Below, piece by piece: positions 4,700 to 63,356 of a stretch of 64,000 nucleotides of DNA. Origin of the DNA: a virus. A program made the translations under genes and the position numbers. Below the pieces are notes generated by a model. That model searched no databases and had not been told where the DNA came from. It saw only the letters and a program-made list of their open reading frames with translations. The stretch is taken from positions 1-64,000 of IMG/VR virus record IMGVR_UViG_3300033405_000004; one strand, given 5' to 3'. Numbering within the stretch: the stretch's first letter is position 1; every line of letters begins with the position of its first letter.

Positions 4700-5041
4700 A
4701 TGAAGACCAAAATCGCCACGATACTCCTCGCCGGCCTCCTCGCGGTGCTGGCCATCGGATGGGTCGTTCAGGGGAACGACTACTTCCTGTTCAAGGTGTT
4801 CAACCCCAGGATGGAGGCGGTGCGCCGCTCCACCTTCGAGCAGTCGAAGGCCTACAACCAGGGCATGATCCAGGACCTCTACGGCATGGAGGCCCAGTAC
4901 GTCGCCGCCGACGAGGGCGGCAAGGACGCCCTGGCCAGCCTGATCCTCCACCGCTACGCCGACTACCCCGACGAGAAGCTCCCGGCCGACCTCCAGGGCT
5001 TCATGCGCCAGCTCCGCGCCCGCAAGCACCTCAACCAATAA
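4700..5041 (+). CDS. membrane-anchored protein
   Basis: N-terminal signal/TM segment. Confidence 0.75.
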   Translation: MKTKIATILLAGLLAVLAIGWVVQGNDYFLFKVFNPRMEAVRRSTFEQSKAYNQGMIQDLYGMEAQYVAADEGGKDALASLILHRYADYPDEKLPADLQGFMRQLRARKHLNQ

Positions 5042-10021: not shown

Positions 10022-10036
10022 GTTCTCATAGGCTTT

Positions 10037-18390: not shown

Positions 18391-19125
18391 CTAGGAGACC
18401 TTCCACATGCCCATCGTCGAGATCCTGGCGCGGCTGAGGTTGAAGGGCATCCGCAGGTACCAGCAGCACGGCAGCGCCAGCGCCACGCCGCCGCTGTTCC
18501 AGGTGAGGGTTTTGGAGCCCGAATATGAGGTGTTGAAGGTGTCCGTGCGCAGCTTGGCGACGCTGTAGTCGCCGGCGAGGCTGGCGATGTTGGCGTAGTA
18601 GCTGGCGGTGACCGTCTGGGTGGACAGGCCCGCGTTGTTCACGACGAACCTCAGCCCGTTGGTGAAGCAGTAGGCGGTCGGGGAGTACTGCGGGAAGCTG
18701 AGCACGAAGCCGGCGTCGGTGCTGGTCGCGACGTTCGTCGCCCCGTTCTGGGCGATGTAGATCTGGGCGCCGCCGCTCCCGATGTTCCCGTTGCCGGACA
18801 GGTTGCTGGCCAGGGCGATGGCGACCCCGCCGCTCCCCCAGCCCAGGCCGATGAACTGGCTGCCGGCGGCGCCCGGCAGGTTGCTGGAGGTGTCCTTCAG
18901 GCCCCAGCAGAACCAGTCCAGGTAGGTGGCGCTGGGGTTGGTGAGGGGCCCGATGGTCTCGGCGGGCGCGTAGGACGAGAAGTTCCCCGTGGGGACCATC
19001 GTGAACATCATCGCCAGCCGCACCTCCGTCCAGGTGGTCCACGGGGGCGCCCGGAGGTAGTACTCGCGCGGCTCCTGGATCAGCACCACGTCCTGCGTGA
19101 CCGACATCTGTTGGATTTCGCCCAT
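18391..19125 (-). CDS. putative tail/receptor-binding protein, paralog 2
   Basis: MGEIQQMSVTQD..., same conserved blocks as neighbours. Confidence 0.75.
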   Translation of the reverse strand: MGEIQQMSVTQDVVLIQEPREYYLRAPPWTTWTEVRLAMMFTMVPTGNFSSYAPAETIGPLTNPSATYLDWFCWGLKDTSSNLPGAAGSQFIGLGWGSGGVAIALASNLSGNGNIGSGGAQIYIAQNGATNVATSTDAGFVLSFPQYSPTAYCFTNGLRFVVNNAGLSTQTVTASYYANIASLAGDYSVAKLRTDTFNTSYSGSKTLTWNSGGVALALPCCWYLRMPFNLSRARISTMGMWKVS

Positions 19126-24645: not shown

Positions 24646-25163
24646 ACGACGGCCGGGATGGGCCTCGTCATGCTCAGCGCCAGCGTCCACGGGAAGAAGC
24701 GCCTGTGCATCAGCTGGTGGGGCACGCCCGCGATCACCGGCCGCATCGGGACCATGATGTCCTCGCCCTGGGCGTCGTGCACGACCACGTAGTCCGCCAC
24801 GGGCAGGAACAGCCGCACGTTCTCGGCCCGCGGCGGGCCGGGGCTGTCGTCGACGAACACCACGCTCCATGGCTGCCGGGCGTGCTGGGCCAGGTTCTCC
24901 GGGCTGTCCGCCTCGACCCTGTGGCCGTCCACCGCCCACTCCTGGAACACGGCCAGCCAGTGGGGGTTCTCCTCCAGGCTCACCAGCGGTCGCCAGGGGC
25001 AGCAGGCCGAGTGCAGGCACGGGGTGGAGATGTGGCCGCAGCCGATCTCCAGGACCGGGCCGGTCGTCGCGCGCAGGCAGGCCAGCAGCACCGGGAGGTG
25101 CGAGCCGGCCCCGAAGTCGATCAGGGTCCCGTCGCCGAGCTTGGCGGCCATCTGCGGGTCCAT
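24642..25163 (-). CDS. class I SAM-dependent methyltransferase
   Basis: VLEIGCG, LVSLEE, VVFVDD, VVVHDA motifs. Confidence 0.75.
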   Translation of the reverse strand: MDPQMAAKLGDGTLIDFGAGSHLPVLLACLRATTGPVLEIGCGHISTPCLHSACCPWRPLVSLEENPHWLAVFQEWAVDGHRVEADSPENLAQHARQPWSVVFVDDSPGPPRAENVRLFLPVADYVVVHDAQGEDIMVPMRPVIAGVPHQLMHRRFFPWTLALSMTRPIPAVV

Positions 25164-25166
25164 GGA

Positions 25167-25418
25167 CTAAATAGGCTTGTCGATGTAGGCGACCACGTCG
25201 CCCACCGTCCGCAGCTTCGCGGCGTCGGCCTCGCCGATCGGCGCCTTGAGCTCGGCCTTGAACTCCTCCTCGAAGGCGAACACCAGCTCGATGAGGTCGA
25301 GCGAGTCGGCCCCCAGGTCCTCGACGAAGGACGCGTCCGGGGTGGCCTGCTCCTCCATCACGTTCAGCTGGTTGACGACTATCTCCCTGACGCGCTGCTC
25401 TGTGGTTTTGTCGGGCAT
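25167..25418 (-). CDS. acpP: acyl carrier protein
   Basis: SFVEDLGADSLD phosphopantetheine site, FEEEF, LRTVGDVV.YI. Confidence 0.93.
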   Translation of the reverse strand: MPDKTTEQRVREIVVNQLNVMEEQATPDASFVEDLGADSLDLIELVFAFEEEFKAELKAPIGEADAAKLRTVGDVVAYIDKPI

Positions 25419-29506: not shown

Positions 29507-29826
29507 GCGAGGAAGGTGTCGTGGAACCATTGGCGCAGGCTCCTGTGCGCCCCGGCCGGCGGCTTCGGGCGGCCGGTGGGCACCACGGGCCGCCATTCGC
29601 GCAGGTCGAGGGAGCAGTGGTCGGGCCACTTCACTGCCAGCGAGCAGTATTCCAGGAAGCGGGCGCACTTGGCGTGCTCGCGCGCCGACGCCACGGTCGA
29701 CGCCCAGTCTGCCGGCCGCTGGTGGGCGCAGGTGTCGCAGCACTTCACGGGCGAGTTGAGGTACGCCGGGCCGGCGGGGGGCCGGGGCCTGCCGTCGAGG
29801 TCGAACCTGCGGATGGGGTCGCTCAT
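29503..29826 (-). CDS. PIRRFDL-motif Cys-rich protein
   Basis: MSDPIRRFDLDG...CCDTCAH. Confidence 0.6.
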   Translation of the reverse strand: MSDPIRRFDLDGRPRPPAGPAYLNSPVKCCDTCAHQRPADWASTVASAREHAKCARFLEYCSLAVKWPDHCSLDLREWRPVVPTGRPKPPAGAHRSLRQWFHDTFLA

Positions 29827-30095
29827 GCCGGTTCGAGGCCGCTGGGGGCCGACGGGTCGACGGGGTCGAGCCAGGCCAGCGGCACGGTCGCGTCCATGCC
29901 GATGATGTTGGGCTCGTCCTCGTCGCCCAGGTTTTCGTTCCAGATCACCTTGCCGTAGGGCGTGTCGTCGACCCCCGCTGCCGAAATCTGGGCGCCGATG
30001 ACCTTGGTGAGCATGACGCGCTGCACCTCGCCGTTGGGCCACCGGCAGGTGTACTCGCGGTTGCACTCGTAGCTGGAAAGGTCTACTGCGGCCAT
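29823..30095 (-). CDS. hypothetical protein
   Basis: 90 aa, coupled. Confidence 0.65.
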   Translation of the reverse strand: MAAVDLSSYECNREYTCRWPNGEVQRVMLTKVIGAQISAAGVDDTPYGKVIWNENLGDEDEPNIIGMDATVPLAWLDPVDPSAPSGLEPA

Positions 30096-46599: not shown

Positions 46600-47622
46600 G
46601 TGAGCTCACCAACTGCTGACACCAACGCCAACGTCGCCGCCCCGGCGACCACCAACACCGTCGGGTTCTTCAACCCGAACGACCACCCCGTCTCGCTGCA
46701 CTCCTCCAAGCTCGGCCTCGCGAACCTCATTGTCCAGCCCAACAAGTTCATCACGGACGAGAGGGGGAACCAGATCAACGACCCGGCGCTGGAGGCCTTC
46801 GTCGGCCCCCACATGCTGGCGAAGCAGATCTCGGACGAGCCGGTGCCCGTGATCAGCTTCCGTATGCGCCCGCCCGGCGCGCCCGCCCCCATGGGCGCTC
46901 CCGGCTTCTCCGGCAGCCGCCAGGTCCCGGCCTCGATGAGGCCCGGCGGCGAGGCCGCCGCCCACCCCGCGCCGAGGGCGCCGCTCCCCCCGAGGCCGCG
47001 CCCGCCCACCGCCCGGATCGCCGGTCAGCCGGTCGTCCCCGTGGCGCCGCAGGCGGGCTACTCGCCCGTCGCCGGCATGACGATGGCCGAGGCCCGCGCC
47101 CGCGGCCTCGTGGCCCCGAACATCATCCCGGCCCCGGAGGGGATCGAGGACGTCCCCGGCAGGGACGTGGGGAAGGCCGCGCCCTACATCGGCATCGCCA
47201 GGGACGCCGGGGTCAAGCGCCAGCCCCCGCCGGCCGCCAGGATGAACCCGCCGCCCCCCGTGCCCCCGGCCGTGATGAAGAAGGGTGGCATCGCCGAGCG
47301 CCTCGCCAAGGCCGCGGCGAGGAAGGTCCCCGACGTTGTAATCGACCCGGTCATGGAGGAGGCTACCGCCCGGGCCGCCGCGCCGGAGGAGGCCGCCCCG
47401 CCCGTCGAGGAGGCCACACCCCCCGTGGAGCGGCCGCTCCCGGAGCCCAGGCTCCCGCCCGCGCCCGTCGGCGAATCCCCGCCGCAGGCCGCCGGGACCG
47501 AGAAGTTCGTGTGCGTCGCCTGCGGCAGGGCCTTCGGCACCAGGAACCATCTCCAGCAGCACGCGAAGGGGAAGCACCCGGCCCAGCTCGGCGCCGTCAT
47601 GGCGCCCTACCCCAAGGGGTAG
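46600..47622 (+). CDS. Pro-rich protein with C-terminal C2H2 zinc finger
   Basis: FVCVACGRAFGTRNHLQQHAKGKH. Confidence 0.75.
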   Translation: MSSPTADTNANVAAPATTNTVGFFNPNDHPVSLHSSKLGLANLIVQPNKFITDERGNQINDPALEAFVGPHMLAKQISDEPVPVISFRMRPPGAPAPMGAPGFSGSRQVPASMRPGGEAAAHPAPRAPLPPRPRPPTARIAGQPVVPVAPQAGYSPVAGMTMAEARARGLVAPNIIPAPEGIEDVPGRDVGKAAPYIGIARDAGVKRQPPPAARMNPPPPVPPAVMKKGGIAERLAKAAARKVPDVVIDPVMEEATARAAAPEEAAPPVEEATPPVERPLPEPRLPPAPVGESPPQAAGTEKFVCVACGRAFGTRNHLQQHAKGKHPAQLGAVMAPYPKG

Positions 47623-47629
47623 TTAGGGC

Positions 47630-48418
47630 ATGCCCGCCCCGTCCACCCAGCCGCTGGTTCCCGTCCCCCAGGCCGACCACCAGGTAACGACCAGCGCCCA
47701 GTCCACCAGCACGCTCCCGGCCTACGGGTACACGATCGACCAGCTGTCCTCGTACATCAAGCGGTCGCTCGGCCAGCCCACGATGATCGTGGAACTGCCC
47801 CAGCAGAACATCCTCGACGCCATCCAGGACGCGCTCGTGCTCTACAGCACCTGGCGCCCCGTCCTGCGCTACGGCGCCATCCAGCTCCAGCGCGGCCAGT
47901 TCCAATACCTCGTGGGCGTCGACATGGGCCAGGGGCCGATCCGCGTCGACTTCGTCCAGCCCAACCCCGTCCCCGCCGAGCTGTTCTGGGGCAACCTCAT
48001 CGACCCGGCCCCGCTCCTGCGCAACGGCCTCGACGAGCTCGACAGCTTCCTGCGGTGGATGAAGGTCTGGATGCGCGTCACCTCGATCCAGCCCAACTGG
48101 ACCTACGACTTCGCCAACAAGCAGCTCCTCATCTGGAACCCGCTCGACCGCTACCAGGCCGGCCTCCAGTGGTACCAGCCCTACTCCGACACGAAGGGGC
48201 TGGACCAGTTCGGGGCCAAGTGGGTCAAGGACTACGCCTTCCAGAAGGCCCGCCACCAGTACGCCGAGATCCTCAGCAAGTACTCCGGGGCCATCCCCGG
48301 CCCGCTGCAGAACCTCCAGTTCGACCAGCAGCGCCGCGACAAGGCCGAGGCCAAGCTCAAGGAGCTGGAGGAGCACCTCCAGGCGGCGCAGATCTTCGCC
48401 CCGCTGGACATCGACTGA
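47630..48418 (+). CDS. neck protein (T4 gp13-like)
   Basis: YIKRSLGQP..VEL...I.DAIQDAL and WVKDYA...ILSKY.G.IPG...L.ELEE.L match gp13 termini. Confidence 0.8.
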   Translation: MPAPSTQPLVPVPQADHQVTTSAQSTSTLPAYGYTIDQLSSYIKRSLGQPTMIVELPQQNILDAIQDALVLYSTWRPVLRYGAIQLQRGQFQYLVGVDMGQGPIRVDFVQPNPVPAELFWGNLIDPAPLLRNGLDELDSFLRWMKVWMRVTSIQPNWTYDFANKQLLIWNPLDRYQAGLQWYQPYSDTKGLDQFGAKWVKDYAFQKARHQYAEILSKYSGAIPGPLQNLQFDQQRRDKAEAKLKELEEHLQAAQIFAPLDID

Positions 48419-57275: not shown

Positions 57276-57845
57276 ATGAACTATTCCCGCATCGCCAAGA
57301 CCATCCTCCAGAGCCAGACCAACATGGGCGCCGTGGACGCCTTCGCCATCAAGGGGGCGGTCACCCAGGAGGAGTACTCCGAGGCCCTCGCCCGCGGCTG
57401 GATCGAGGCGCGCGAGGACGGCTGCGTCGGGCTGCCGAGCAGGGCCTCTTGCCTGGACGAGCTGCGCGCCGCCGCGGCCTCTGAGGGTTTCAAGCCCGCC
57501 GAGGTCGACCACGCTCTCGACGTGGACACCTTTGCCTCCTACCCTCGCTTCGTGATGAGGGAGAGCCTCGCCGAGGACGTTGACCCCGGCGTGGGCGACG
57601 AGTGTGTCGTGGCCGAGGGTGGCAAGACCTACACGGCCAGCGTCGCGAGCCGCAACGCGGACGGAACATATAAGTTAAGCTTTTCGGGCGATAAGCCCAC
57701 CAAGGACTCGTTCACCCGCTCGGAGATCCGCGTGACCAAGCCGGTGGCCGTCGCGGCCACGGCGCCCGCCACGCCCCCGCCACCGGCGGCGCCCGTCGTG
57801 CCCGCCGCCTCCCCCGTCGGCCCCGGCCTCGCGGGGCGGGCGTGA
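57276..57845 (+). CDS. hypothetical protein with Tudor/SH3-like C-terminal domain
   Basis: VGDECVV..G.TYTASV..N.DGTY.L.F. Confidence 0.7.
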   Translation: MNYSRIAKTILQSQTNMGAVDAFAIKGAVTQEEYSEALARGWIEAREDGCVGLPSRASCLDELRAAAASEGFKPAEVDHALDVDTFASYPRFVMRESLAEDVDPGVGDECVVAEGGKTYTASVASRNADGTYKLSFSGDKPTKDSFTRSEIRVTKPVAVAATAPATPPPPAAPVVPAASPVGPGLAGRA

Positions 57846-57897
57846 ACCTTTTTGTTTACAACCCCGGAACGGGGGCCTAGGTGGCTCTGGTCTGCGT

Positions 57898-57974
57898 GTC
57901 CTCGTAGCTCAATCTTGGACGAGCGACGGACTCTAAATCCGGGGATGCGGGTTCGACCCCCGCCGAGGGCACCA
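57898..57974 (+). tRNA. amber suppressor tRNA (anticodon CUA)
   Basis: acceptor GTCCTCG/CGAGGGC, D stem GCTC/GAGC, anticodon loop CT-CTA-AA (57933-57935), T arm GCGGG-TTCGACC-CCCGC, encoded ACCA. Confidence 0.9.
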
Positions 57975-58307
57975 TCACTTCGCGAGCATCGCCGCGTGGC
58001 TGATCGCCCGCTGCGGGCTTCTCATCCGCTGCGCCCCCACCGTGAAGACCGGGTACACGCTCCCGTCCGGCCGCTGCCGGAACTCCGTCTCGATGCCGAG
58101 CTGGGCCAGCAGGGCCTGGGCCTCGTCGCGGTAGACCCGGGCGGTTCGCGCGCTGGTCAGGCCGCCGGCCCGGTCGGCCGTCGCCGCCAGGTCGAGCAGG
58201 CGCTCCGCCCGGTGCGACTCGTCGGGCGCCGCCCGCCGGAGCCAGTCCTTCCATTGGACTTCGAAGTCGTCCTCGAACAACCTCTCCAGGATCTGGCGTG
58301 CCCTCAT
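57975..58307 (-). CDS. hypothetical protein (candidate head-packaged)
   Basis: TAGTTA-N4-ATG; MRARQILERLFED leader. Confidence 0.7.
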   Translation of the reverse strand: MRARQILERLFEDDFEVQWKDWLRRAAPDESHRAERLLDLAATADRAGGLTSARTARVYRDEAQALLAQLGIETEFRQRPDGSVYPVFTVGAQRMRSPQRAISHAAMLAK

Positions 58308-58359
58308 GCCGTAACTACTATCGGTTGACTCCGGGCCGGGGATGCTGTTCTATTGGGGC

Positions 58360-58737
58360 ATGGACGAGTAGGTAGCACCCGGGGACGGTTACCGCCTGTA
58401 CGCGGTCGTGCGCGAGGACCTCGCGATGCCGCCGGGCAAGCTCGCCAGCCAGGTCGGCCACGCCTACCTTGAGGCGTTCCTGCGCGCCGGCCCCGAGCGC
58501 CAGTCCGCCTACCGGGCGGGCGGCATGGGCGTCAAGGTCTGCCTGGGCGCCCCGGGCCTGAACGCCCTCGGGCGCCTCTACGACCGCGCCCTCGCGCTCG
58601 GCCTCCCCTGCTACCTCGTCGAGGACTCTGGCCGGAACACCACGTTCGGCGGCGTCCCCACCGTGTCCGCGCTCGGCGTCGGCCCGCTCACCGCGGGCGA
58701 GGCCGCGTTCCTGCGGCGCCTGCCCCTTCTCCCATGA
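58360..58737 (+). CDS. pth2: peptidyl-tRNA hydrolase Pth2 with in-frame TAG at codon 4
   Basis: LYAVVREDLAMPPGKLASQVGHA, KVCL, VEDSG..T, T..ALGVGP, L.LL; ATG GAC GAG TAG in frame. Confidence 0.85.
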
Positions 58738-59183
58738 ACACCACCGACACAGCCCAACCCGGGGCGGACACGCCCCTTTCGTTCCACCCGCAGCACGCCC
58801 CGATCGACCTCGCGTTCGCGGCCAGCGTCCCGGCCTACCGGGATTTTGTTTACGAATGGCGGGCGCTCTACCGCTGGCTCAGCGCCACGATCCGCCACGA
58901 CAAGCTGGTGTCGCGCGCCGCCGAGTCGGAGCGGGCCAAGCCCAAGCTCAACGTCAAGCCCGGCCTGCTGCGGGCCCTGGCCGGGAAGTGCAAGCCCGCC
59001 GGCCCGCCGCCCGCGGCCTACGCCGCCACCTGGAGGCTGCCCCATTGGCAGATCCGGTGGAGCGTCAACGACCGCGACCGCTACGGCGACCGGGCGTACG
59101 CCAACTACCTGCTGGCCCTGCGGGCGGACGCGAAGCGCGCGTTCAAGGCGCGTGACGCAGTTCTTACCCCGCATGAGGTTTAA
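58734..59183 (+). CDS. hypothetical protein
   Basis: ATGA coupling. Confidence 0.65.
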   Translation: MNTTDTAQPGADTPLSFHPQHAPIDLAFAASVPAYRDFVYEWRALYRWLSATIRHDKLVSRAAESERAKPKLNVKPGLLRALAGKCKPAGPPPAAYAATWRLPHWQIRWSVNDRDRYGDRAYANYLLALRADAKRAFKARDAVLTPHEV

Positions 59184-61287: not shown

Positions 61288-61624
61288 CGTCCCCGTCCAG
61301 GTCGAGCAGTCCAGGCGGAAGATCTGCGGGCGCTGCCTGGCGAGGTGCCCAGGCTTCCTCTCCGGCTCGCTCCGGCTGGACCTGGCGGCGTCCCGCTGCC
61401 CGCACCCCGCCGGCGCCCGGTGGGCCCCGTTCCTGCCGGGGGCGCCCGTCGTCCCACCCACGCTCGGCGCCGGGACGGCCTTTTCCTACCTCGCGCGGCC
61501 GGTGGCCAGGGTCGCCGACGCCGTGCTCAGGACCAACCTCGCCAACTGCCCGGGGTGCGCCGACCGCAAGGTGCGGTGGGACAGGAAGGTGCCCGACATA
61601 ATCCATCCGTGGCGCCGTGGTTAG
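61277..61624 (+). CDS. Cys-rich small protein
   Basis: ICGRCLARC, CP, CPGCADRK..W. Confidence 0.65.
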   Translation: MVRDVPVQVEQSRRKICGRCLARCPGFLSGSLRLDLAASRCPHPAGARWAPFLPGAPVVPPTLGAGTAFSYLARPVARVADAVLRTNLANCPGCADRKVRWDRKVPDIIHPWRRG

Positions 61625-61631
61625 TTAGGGC

Positions 61632-63356
61632 GTGGCCGATCAGGTAACCCAGTTCAACTTCGTCGACAGGTCTTTCGCCAACCCCGTCGCCTGGGAGTGG
61701 GACTTCGGCGACGGCGCCACCTCCGACGCCCAGAATCCGTCCCACGCCTACCCGTCGGGCACCGGGGTGTACCTCGCCCGGCTGACCGCGTCGGCCCTGG
61801 CCTGCGGCGGCGGCCTGACCAGCGGCACCGTGTGGCACCCTGTGGTCATCCGCAACGTGCAGGTGTACTCCTCCACGATCGTCACCGGCGTGACCTACAT
61901 CGGCGGCTTCGTCTGGTACGGCTTTTACCCCTACACTTACACCGGCTTCGACGGCGTGAACGTGCCCGACCGGTACCTGACCAAGACGGTCTCCGGCTCC
62001 CAGAGCCAGGACCAGTACCCCGACGGCTACATCCTCCCGCCGATGGGCAACATCACCATCGGCCAGCTCGGCGGCTCGGTCGAGATAGACCACTCCACCG
62101 GCGCGGTCGTCAGCAACACCATGGTCGGCACGCAGACCTTGATCGGCAACTTCTGCACCGGCCTTTCCTGGCGTGGCTCCTACGGAGGCTCCACGGCGAC
62201 CATTTCCTACCAGGTTTACGGCAGCCAGATCGAGGACTTCCTGGTCGCCGGCGGCACCGTCGTCCTTGAGCCCACGGTCAAGCAGTACGTCGTGTCGCCC
62301 GTCCCCTTCCCGACCGGCGGGGGCTACGTGTGCACCTACTGCGACAACGGGGTGTGGGGCCACAACAACGACGACCCGGACCCGTCCGACACCGGCTTCG
62401 ATCCGCCGACGGAAGTCTTGTCGAACAAGATGACCTTGGCCGAGGCGGCGGCCAACGGCGGCGCCACGCAGGTCCCCTGCACCTACAGCTCCAGCGTGTC
62501 GAGCTTCAACCCGGCCACGGGGGCCATGAACTGCACCGCCTCAACCCTCACCATCGGGTACCTCAAGCCGAGCACGACCGGCCAGTTCCTGGTGACGCTC
62601 ACCTACAACGTGCAGGCCATCGGCGGGGGCCCGACCACCACGCTGACCAAATCGTACGCTCAGACCGTCGGCGTGGGCGGCTATCTGACCAGCTTCTCGG
62701 TGGACGTCCCGATGATGGTGGGCTACACGGTCACGCTGGCCTCGTGCGTGGTGCTGGACATCCTTGAGTGCTCGGACGACTTCGAGGAGCTCACCAGCCA
62801 AAGTTGGTATGGCAACCTTGCCGCGGGCTACCCGGTGACTGCGAACGGTACGTACGCCCCCGTTTTCGGCTCGGTGCAGCCCGCGGCCGAGTGCAGCTCG
62901 GACTGGGAGGACGCCACCTCGTCGGGGCCGATTCTCACCGACCCCTGGGGCTACTACTGGGCGGCGGCCGGCACGTTCTCGACTGCCAATTATTTGGAGG
63001 CCTCCGACGACTTTGAGGAGTGGGGCGGCTCGGGTTCGGGCGTGGTCGTCGCCAACCCGGTGGGCTTCTGGTCCAAGGGCCTCGGATGGGCCACCCCCTT
63101 CGGCTTCTTCCAGACGATAACGTACGCGGTCTGCACCGACGACTTCGAGAGCTACGCGGTCGGGGCCATCACTGACCTGAACAACACCTCGCAGGCCCTC
63201 AACAGCAACCAGAACTGGTCCGGCGACGGGGTCTTCGGCCTCGTCGTCTACCTGACGGCGTACGACGACTTCGAATCCTACCCGGCGGGGCCGATCGCGA
63301 CCCTGCCCGCGGGCGGCGGTTCCTGGTCCGGCGCGGGCGCCATCGGTTCGGCGTAA
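61632..63356 (+). CDS. PKD-domain virion protein with C-terminal DDFE repeats
   Basis: F.DRS..PVAWEWDFGDGATS..QNPSHAY; five DDFE/SDWE repeats. Confidence 0.85.
   Translation: MADQVTQFNFVDRSFANPVAWEWDFGDGATSDAQNPSHAYPSGTGVYLARLTASALACGGGLTSGTVWHPVVIRNVQVYSSTIVTGVTYIGGFVWYGFYPYTYTGFDGVNVPDRYLTKTVSGSQSQDQYPDGYILPPMGNITIGQLGGSVEIDHSTGAVVSNTMVGTQTLIGNFCTGLSWRGSYGGSTATISYQVYGSQIEDFLVAGGTVVLEPTVKQYVVSPVPFPTGGGYVCTYCDNGVWGHNNDDPDPSDTGFDPPTEVLSNKMTLAEAAANGGATQVPCTYSSSVSSFNPATGAMNCTASTLTIGYLKPSTTGQFLVTLTYNVQAIGGGPTTTLTKSYAQTVGVGGYLTSFSVDVPMMVGYTVTLASCVVLDILECSDDFEELTSQSWYGNLAAGYPVTANGTYAPVFGSVQPAAECSSDWEDATSSGPILTDPWGYYWAAAGTFSTANYLEASDDFEEWGGSGSGVVVANPVGFWSKGLGWATPFGFFQTITYAVCTDDFESYAVGAITDLNNTSQALNSNQNWSGDGVFGLVVYLTAYDDFESYPAGPIATLPAGGGSWSGAGAIGSA

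Follow-up and report, generated by a model that had tools for sequence, protein, structure and literature searches.

The window analyzed here is the first 64 kb (64,000 nucleotides; nt) of the 157,322-bp virus record IMGVR_UViG_3300033405_000004, which has a G+C (GC) content of 67.7% and is 69% complete. It harbors a transfer RNA (tRNA) of the amber-suppressor type and, downstream on the same strand, pth2, a gene for a predicted peptidyl-tRNA hydrolase whose fourth codon is an in-frame TAG. Comparison of the locus with its relatives demonstrates, at the level of sequence, that this stop codon is a real gate: it is conserved, lies in frame, co-varies with the anticodon of the accompanying tRNA and is under selection, and full-length Pth2, as predicted, requires passage through it. 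The tRNA and pth2 quite probably form a lock-and-key cassette, in which Pth2 would be made only when the phage tRNA overrides the stop in the leader. The central features are the following.

57898-57974, plus strand: tRNA of the amber-suppressor type, 77 nt, anticodon CUA (CTA at 57933-57935), class I, with a 4-nt variable loop, A73 and an encoded CCA; called by ARAGORN.
58360-58368, plus strand: leader Met-Asp-Glu (ATG GAC GAG), which provides the sole start codon for pth2.
58369-58371, plus strand: the gate, an in-frame TAG followed by G, codon 4 of pth2; conserved in 86 of 93 loci.
58372-58737, plus strand: PTH2-family body (Pfam PF01981), 121 codons plus TGA (58735-58737).

The predicted product of pth2 is a peptidyl-tRNA hydrolase of the PTH2 family. 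It matches the Pfam PTH2 profile with an E-value of 1.6e-16 (61 bits against a cut-off of 23) over profile positions 1-100 of 115, and the PTH2 chains 2zv3, 1q7s, 1rzw, 1wn2 and 1xty in the PDB match at E-values from 5e-10 to 1e-4. Lys27 in a G-K motif and Asp89 in a D-x-G motif are invariant in the alignment of homologs and align with their counterparts in 2zv3 and 1q7s; studies of the Sulfolobus enzyme point to both residues as catalytic. The gene begins 386 nt past the tRNA and reads ATG GAC GAG TAG, with TAG as codon 4, confirming the preliminary description of this DNA, which had placed it at about 390 nt with the same reading.

A start downstream of the gate would remove part of the fold. 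Position 1 of the PTH2 profile aligns to a Tyr at 58390, upstream of both GTG 58408 and ATG 58426. The first beta strand lies at about 58393-58413, and the solved chains 2zv3 and 1q7s (human Bit1) open with the same strand. ATG, GTG and TTG are all absent from the interval that separates the TAG from this strand; the first canonical start past the TAG is GTG 58408, which encodes the last Val of the strand. Profile and structures therefore bear out the earlier claim that a start at this GTG would lose the conserved first strand, since both begin upstream of it. Gene callers start pth2 at ATG 58426 (103 amino acids; aa) here and in most relatives, and the annotated length is 102-105 aa here and in 17 of 22 database homologs. 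Because most homologs are annotated at this length from an internal Met, their upstream frame was suspected to be interrupted as well. The Met at 58426 is a residue conserved in the family, and cellular PTH2 proteins in which the upstream strand is present contain it too. Error does not account for the TAG, since an assembly from a separate sequencing run (L189) is 100% identical over 1,528 bp that include it; the identical 103-aa product is encoded on ten contigs.

Related loci were gathered from contigs encoding homologs, from IMG/VR, from metagenomes of the Joint Genome Institute (JGI) and from GTDB genomes. They were recovered by alignment-based scans; nothing was found when the DNA of the locus was compared with cultured phages or when viral contigs were scanned with a single protein. 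Removal of identical leaders left 93 distinct close relatives, with GC contents of 36-68%. In 89 of the 93, an in-frame stop separates a short ATG leader from the PTH2 strand (TAG in 86, TAA in one, TGA in two); the remaining four are special cases. An independent upstream open reading frame (ORF) would be expected in frame in one-third of loci, and the excess is overwhelming (p about 2e-37). The leaders most often comprise 2-7 codons, commonly Met-Thr, and no ATG, GTG or TTG stands between stop and strand in 70 of the 89 gated loci. Across the full range of GC content, the amino-acid sequence from the gate to the internal Met is conserved. Several relatives (L003, L010 and L019) have two gates, and the TAA locus (L021) has two TAA codons. 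More distant PTH2 genes have a plain Met start directly on the strand, including the subfamily L032-L037 and the genes of phiCbK, mycobacteriophage Sandalphon and XacN1; no suppressor tRNA was found in loci L032-L037. One TAG-gated relative with a tRNA-CUA about 140 nt upstream (L182, CAYUVH010000026.1) is an 88.7-kb contig in a metagenome-assembled genome of Verrucomicrobiota, and this binning is either a hint to the host of that relative or the result of a mis-binned phage contig.

The stop codon of the gate and the anticodon of the tRNA vary together. Within the stretches retrieved, tRNA-CUA was found in 57 of the 86 TAG loci. The check proposed in the preliminary description, for an early TAG shared by pth2 homologs of phages with suppressor tRNAs, thus gives a strongly positive result. 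All 60 tRNA-CUA genes in these 57 loci share the strand of pth2, 53 of them upstream and 7 downstream, and the median distance from the tRNA 3' end to the gate is 45 nt for the upstream genes. L015, one of the TAG loci without a tRNA-CUA in the retrieved stretch, has it 24 kb from the gate in a tRNA array. The TAA locus has a tRNA-UUA 133 nt upstream, and in the TGA locus L084 a tRNA-UCA starts 161 nt upstream of the conserved Gly-Lys motif, which served as the anchor. The cultured Agrobacterium phage Atu_ph07 (L038) has a six-codon ATG leader that ends in TGA and is in frame with a PTH2 homolog (MF403008.1, 198552-198950, minus strand; AUZ95035.1, recorded as a hypothetical protein that starts at an internal ATG). 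The sole suppressor tRNA of this phage, near 430713, has the anticodon UCA (ARAGORN; also PMC6102473). The published annotation missed the TGA leader. No mismatched pair of stop and anticodon occurs among the loci where both were seen. Suppressor-dependent translation of Pth2 is well supported because the gate is conserved and co-varies with the tRNA anticodon; the need for amber read-through, first put forward from the window alone, now has the support of a conserved in-frame stop and of a matching anticodon in every locus that shows both.

The codon context of the gates differs from that of ordinary stops. Among the 84 TAG gates with sufficient flanking sequence, the base 3' of the TAG is a purine in every case (G in 70, A in 14). 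The next two bases are mostly TT, making GTT the rule as the post-gate codon and GTG rare (2 of 84), and the codon before the TAG is mostly ACR. The genuine TAG stops of the record prefer T as the next base and have a purine there in only 17 of 40 cases (Fisher p 1.4e-14 against the gates). In Escherichia coli, a 3' purine favours nonsense suppression. The purine context fits a gate that is selected for read-through, whereas the ordinary stops are not.

Some relatives appear to use a four-base or shifted gate. In L008 (tRNA at 4787-4863, leader at about 4983-5010), the leader is one base out of frame and a +1 shift is needed at TAGA; next to it lies a tRNA whose anticodon loop has eight bases, the central four being UCUA. 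In L050 and L051, a homologous leader, about 40 nt before position 2501 of L050, joins the pth2 frame by +1 at TGAA, and the L050 tRNA (1107-1184), which is homologous to that of L008, has an anticodon loop of the same length that contains UUCA. Both tRNAs score above the Rfam threshold and fold as cloverleafs, and their four central loop bases are exact complements of TAGA and TGAA, respectively. L008 and L050 are thus candidate natural four-base decoding pairs. L022 (4934-5000) and L073 (leader at about 240-300) share a leader with two TAG codons; synonymous differences reveal that the first TAG is read in frame, and a +1 shift is needed at the second, which in L073 has the context CTT TAG C, like the shift site of prfB. 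No tRNA was found in the short stretches retrieved for these two loci. In addition, tRNA-like genes with enlarged or odd anticodon loops and ambiguous folds adjoin gated pth2 genes, mostly just downstream (L012:4908-4986, L014:6362, L026:5352-5429, L028:5402, L060:3221 and L112:2361); ARAGORN assigns them the four-base "anticodons" gcaa, gtaa, agta and taaa, and no targets were found for them.

TAG is an ordinary stop elsewhere in the genome. Statistics were based on a set of about 163 genes in the record, called crudely from GC content at third codon positions (GC3). Of these 163, 96 end in TGA, 40 in TAG and 27 in TAA. The genome is not recoded, since TAG closes about a quarter of its genes, and the record is unlike a genome of genetic code 15, in which many genes contain an in-frame TAG and TAG is largely given up as a terminator. 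In-frame TAG codons with coding signal on both flanks are not commoner than TGA codons (16 versus 11, before strand filtering). Genome-wide recoding was accordingly rejected as an explanation, there being no such excess and one leader-gated gene only; an ATG with a short leader, a TAG and a long ORF lacking an early start occurs in the 157-kb record solely at pth2. The TAG codons at 18391 and 19140, which the preliminary description had cited as ordinary stops, are genuine stops, both of minus-strand ORFs, and its view that recoding is not genome-wide stands. No release-factor domain (PF00472) was found in the record, which is 69% complete, and no further clear client of the suppressor was found in the genome besides the pth2 operon.

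Two kinds of gene junction that involve TAG were also observed. At the first, TAG is followed by one codon and the in-frame ATG of the next gene, as at 25163-25169 (minus strand) and 64134-64142 (plus strand) in window coordinates and at 68487 and 143009 of the record. Suppression at such a junction would fuse both proteins, and there is no enrichment over TGA junctions; same-frame junctions make up 5 of 40 TAG cases and 7 of 96 TGA cases in the record, which is not a significant excess for TAG. The second junction is recurrent: TTAGGGC, or a close variant of it, stands between a TAG and an ATG or GTG (47620-47632 and 61622-61634 in the window, and near 93509-94513 and 112982-114217 in the record).

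The call of a canonical tRNA with a CUA anticodon and an encoded CCA held up in each analysis applied to it. ARAGORN calls it, its score with the Rfam tRNA model (RF00005) is 54.3 bits, where the gathering score is 29, and its predicted fold is a cloverleaf with CUA in a 7-nt anticodon loop. It is the sole solid tRNA in the 157-kb record by ARAGORN and Rfam. A 92-nt "tRNA-Thr (CGU)" reported by ARAGORN at 29760-29851 lacks an Rfam match at the gathering threshold and probably represents a false call, or else an interrupted tRNA. A possible resemblance of the suppressor to tRNA-Trp is a lead only.

The features that surround the tRNA and pth2 are the following.

57829-57859, plus strand: terminator-like hairpin and the box TTGTTTAC (57852-57859), after the upstream gene; the box lies 39 nt before the tRNA.
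57975-58307, minus strand: ORF of 110 aa on the opposite strand, between the tRNA and pth2; no Pfam match, coding-like with a GC3 of 0.95.
58347-58351, plus strand: GTTCT motif, 8 nt before the leader ATG at 58360.
58734-59183, plus strand: gene X, 149 aa, whose ATG overlaps the pth2 TGA (ATGA).

The hairpin and box at 57829-57859 probably mark the start of a transcription unit of the tRNA's own. The box is probably a phage promoter element: it occurs 11 times in the window where 0.21 copies are expected (636, 3372, 6467, 8466, 14522, 16291, 19303, 27150, 53405, 57852 and 58846). Several copies stand just 3' of terminators composed of a hairpin and a T-run and 5' of genes, and one lies inside gene X. 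The GTTCT motif was found 7-11 nt ahead of the ATG in about 25 real genes of the record, with examples in the window at 10022, 17091, 23349, 41168, 53420, 58347 and 59160. With 8 nt between motif and ATG, pth2 conforms to this spacing, as had been claimed for it, and GTTCT also precedes the leader ATG in relatives L001, L003 and L006. The motif, which is unlike a Shine-Dalgarno sequence, often lies within a palindrome (GTTCT...AGAAC) and is common to relatives of 49-63% GC.

Gene X accompanies pth2 in most relatives. A homolog of the gene X family lies directly downstream of pth2 in 66 of 93 loci; the ATGA overlap is present in 29 of 62 loci, and gene X starts within 30 nt in 42 of 62. The overlap suggests translational coupling, so gene X is probably coupled to pth2 and would be gated together with it. 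The alignment of homologs reveals two conserved helices, and the AlphaFold2 model is a long helical hairpin with a mean confidence score (pLDDT) of 73. Gene X matches no Pfam family and only weakly matches phrog_37012, of unknown function, and no fold in the PDB matches at E <= 0.001.

The switch would operate as follows. Ribosomes would start at ATG 58360, read two further codons and meet UAG at codon 4. Where release factor 1 (RF1) wins, only a tripeptide would be released. The suppressor, presumably charged by a host synthetase, would compete with RF1 at this codon; decoding of UAG by tRNA-CUA would yield an intact PTH2-type hydrolase and probably then gene X, by way of the ATGA overlap. 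The amounts of Pth2 and X would in this way follow the activity of the suppressor relative to that of the release factor. A failed pass would cost almost nothing, because the nascent chain at the gate is a tripeptide, and an inserted residue of any kind should be tolerated, because the gate is at the very start, in a non-conserved leader.

Several observations weigh against this interpretation. Twenty-nine of the TAG loci have no tRNA-CUA in the stretch retrieved, most of them with only a few hundred bases of flank, and L017, from a record that is 76% complete, has none among 18 distinct tRNAs from 20 Rfam matches. Conversely, L071 has the tRNA and no gate. In the window itself, co-transcription of the tRNA and pth2 is not evident because a 386-nt gap with an opposite-strand ORF parts them. 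This ORF is outside the conserved cassette and, unlike in most relatives, separates its two genes; the gap is unusually long compared with the median of 45 nt. When the suppressor was compared with 158 canonical phage tRNAs, its best matches were scattered over Arg, Val, Lys and others. Back-up stops are not in excess after the TAG-terminated genes of the record, where the next stop follows at a median of 47 codons, and an efficient suppressor is therefore expected to be costly, with 40 of about 163 genes ending in TAG. As to purpose, the supply of hydrolase may be tied to the load that the suppressor itself creates. In a phage that still closes a quarter of its genes with UAG, suppression would send ribosomes on into 3' regions, leave some of them stalled or without a stop and increase peptidyl-tRNA drop-off, and the recycling enzyme would scale with this load. 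This proposal, the favoured one among the purposes considered, draws on general knowledge of Pth function, not on the locus, and is put forward tentatively, as one possibility that may well prove wrong.

Two alternatives dispense with gating altogether. The leader could be an independent mini-ORF, with termination at TAG and re-initiation at a non-canonical codon, or with a separate start, so that the tRNA would be unneeded. Very short ORFs ahead of genes are common regulators, ATG, GTG or TTG does occur between gate and strand in 19 of the 89 gated loci, a GTG directly follows the TAG in L190, and in the window CTG 58396 could in principle initiate. This explanation is nevertheless highly improbable given that 89 of the 93 loci keep the stop in frame (p about 2e-37), that the other 70 gated loci lack a canonical start past the stop and that GTG follows the gate in only 2 of 84; it also leaves unexplained why the type of stop, and even the quadruplets, are tracked by the neighbouring anticodon. 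Still harder to credit is a broken gene, a pseudogene or an assembly error, or a truncated protein made from GTG 58408 or ATG 58426. The practice of gene callers, which choose ATG 58426 here and in most relatives, favours it. Set against this are the same TAG in the independent assembly, the conservation as protein of the region from gate to internal Met across 36-68% GC, the presence of that Met in cellular PTH2 proteins with the upstream strand and the absence of beta strand 1 from any truncated form.

Other alternatives accept the gate and differ in its purpose. Sensing of tRNA or release-factor status, clean-up of drop-off and the countering of defence, which the preliminary description had named as examples, may be such purposes. 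The gate could also serve as a timer or licence that withholds Pth2 and X until the suppressor has accumulated and been charged by the host, and thus confines them to late infection or to suitable hosts. A gate at the very start of the gene fits an on/off licence, and suppressor tRNAs have been proposed to time late genes in recoded phages (Borges et al., 10.1101/2021.08.26.457843). This purpose seems unlikely, however, in that most relatives have the tRNA only about 45 nt ahead of the gate and on its strand; tRNA and pth2 then probably share a transcript, leaving little room for delay, and one small operon is all that is gated in the genome. Alternatively, Pth2, together with X, could act as a homeostat that caps read-through via the acylated or peptidyl form of the suppressor, or as a counter-defence that detoxifies tRNA-directed host toxins, in which case the gate would report tRNA or release-factor status. 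Pth enzymes hydrolyse the N-acetyl-aminoacyl-tRNAs made by GNAT toxins, and the travelling together of tRNA, pth2 and X across very different phages suggests a self-contained function. On the other side, the loci examined show no associated gene for defence or for a toxin, and gene X has no recognisable fold relative, making this purpose a doubtful one. It is conceivable, though on present grounds improbable, that the tRNA, the gated pth2 and X make up a portable feedback circuit in which the hydrolase, perhaps with X, would act on the peptidyl or N-blocked form of the suppressor or on the products of read-through. If so, a standard-code phage could run capped and safe stop-codon decoding, in some lineages four-base decoding, in the infected cell, and the circuit would be a natural decoding controller built from one tRNA and one enzyme.

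A suppressor-dependent gate on pth2 would matter in several respects. With it, the "orphan" suppressor tRNAs of some standard-code phages, at least, would have a definite and conserved client. Stop-codon recoding would be seen in a minimal natural form, with a single tRNA and a single gated operon, from which genome-wide recoding could arise. Because stop and anticodon co-vary over three stops and two four-base codons, the family would form a natural set of orthogonal codon/tRNA pairs, of relevance to genetic-code expansion. Direct tests of the switch are within reach, since one member, Atu_ph07, is in culture and its host, A. tumefaciens C58, is tractable. In annotations, gated pth2 genes are systematically mis-started at the internal Met.

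No paper that links a suppressor tRNA to a gated Pth2 was found in the open-access and bioRxiv literature, and the cassette has parallels in several known systems. The bar minigenes of phage lambda are free-standing and toxic to pth-defective hosts. Like them, the leader is an ORF of 2-7 codons with a stop, the type whose peptidyl-tRNA drop-off demands Pth; here it is fused in frame to the hydrolase itself, whereas bar minigenes involve neither read-through nor a suppressor tRNA. The gene for release factor 2, prfB, is autoregulated via an early in-frame UGA. Both prfB and pth2 are translation-factor genes with an early in-frame stop (the TAG at codon 4 here), at which competition sets the output, and L022 and L073 come closer still by needing +1 at their second TAG, at a prfB-like site in L073. 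In prfB, a host tRNA slips and the product reads the stop, closing the feedback; in the pth2 cassette a dedicated, cis-encoded tRNA would read the stop and the product is a hydrolase.

The eight-base-loop tRNAs of L008 and L050 resemble laboratory and engineered +1 and quadruplet tRNAs, such as sufD, SufB2, SufJ and the decoders of UAGN (PMC4764823), in that four central bases match a four-base shift site. The laboratory tRNAs are mutants or designs, while those of L008 and L050 would be natural, conserved and devoted to one gene; the window itself has a plain triplet gate. XacN1 and Atu_ph07 are jumbo phages that, like the present virus, use the standard code and have CUA or UCA tRNAs plus a PTH2 gene. 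The authors of the XacN1 study sought targets of its CUA tRNAs and found none (PMC5852040), and those of the Atu_ph07 study listed the UCA tRNA and the hydrolases separately (PMC6102473). The PTH2 gene of XacN1 has a plain start, which leaves the suppressors of that phage unexplained, whereas in Atu_ph07 a TGA-gated PTH2 gene emerges here as the target.

A further comparison is with recoded phages that carry their own suppressor tRNAs and read TAG as Gln (code 15) or TGA as Trp (Borges et al., 10.1101/2021.08.26.457843; Peters et al., PMC9523058). There, as would be the case here, a stop-reading tRNA of the phage decodes in-frame stops while the host uses the standard code, and a regulatory role has been proposed. 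In those phages, the share of genes with in-frame stops ranges from a quarter to the majority, and the stop codon has largely ceased to serve for termination, whereas TAG still terminates about 25% of the genes here. Unlike in the recoded phages, a single small operon is gated, by a single codon at a fixed leader site ahead of the fold, and the client belongs to the same enzyme family throughout.

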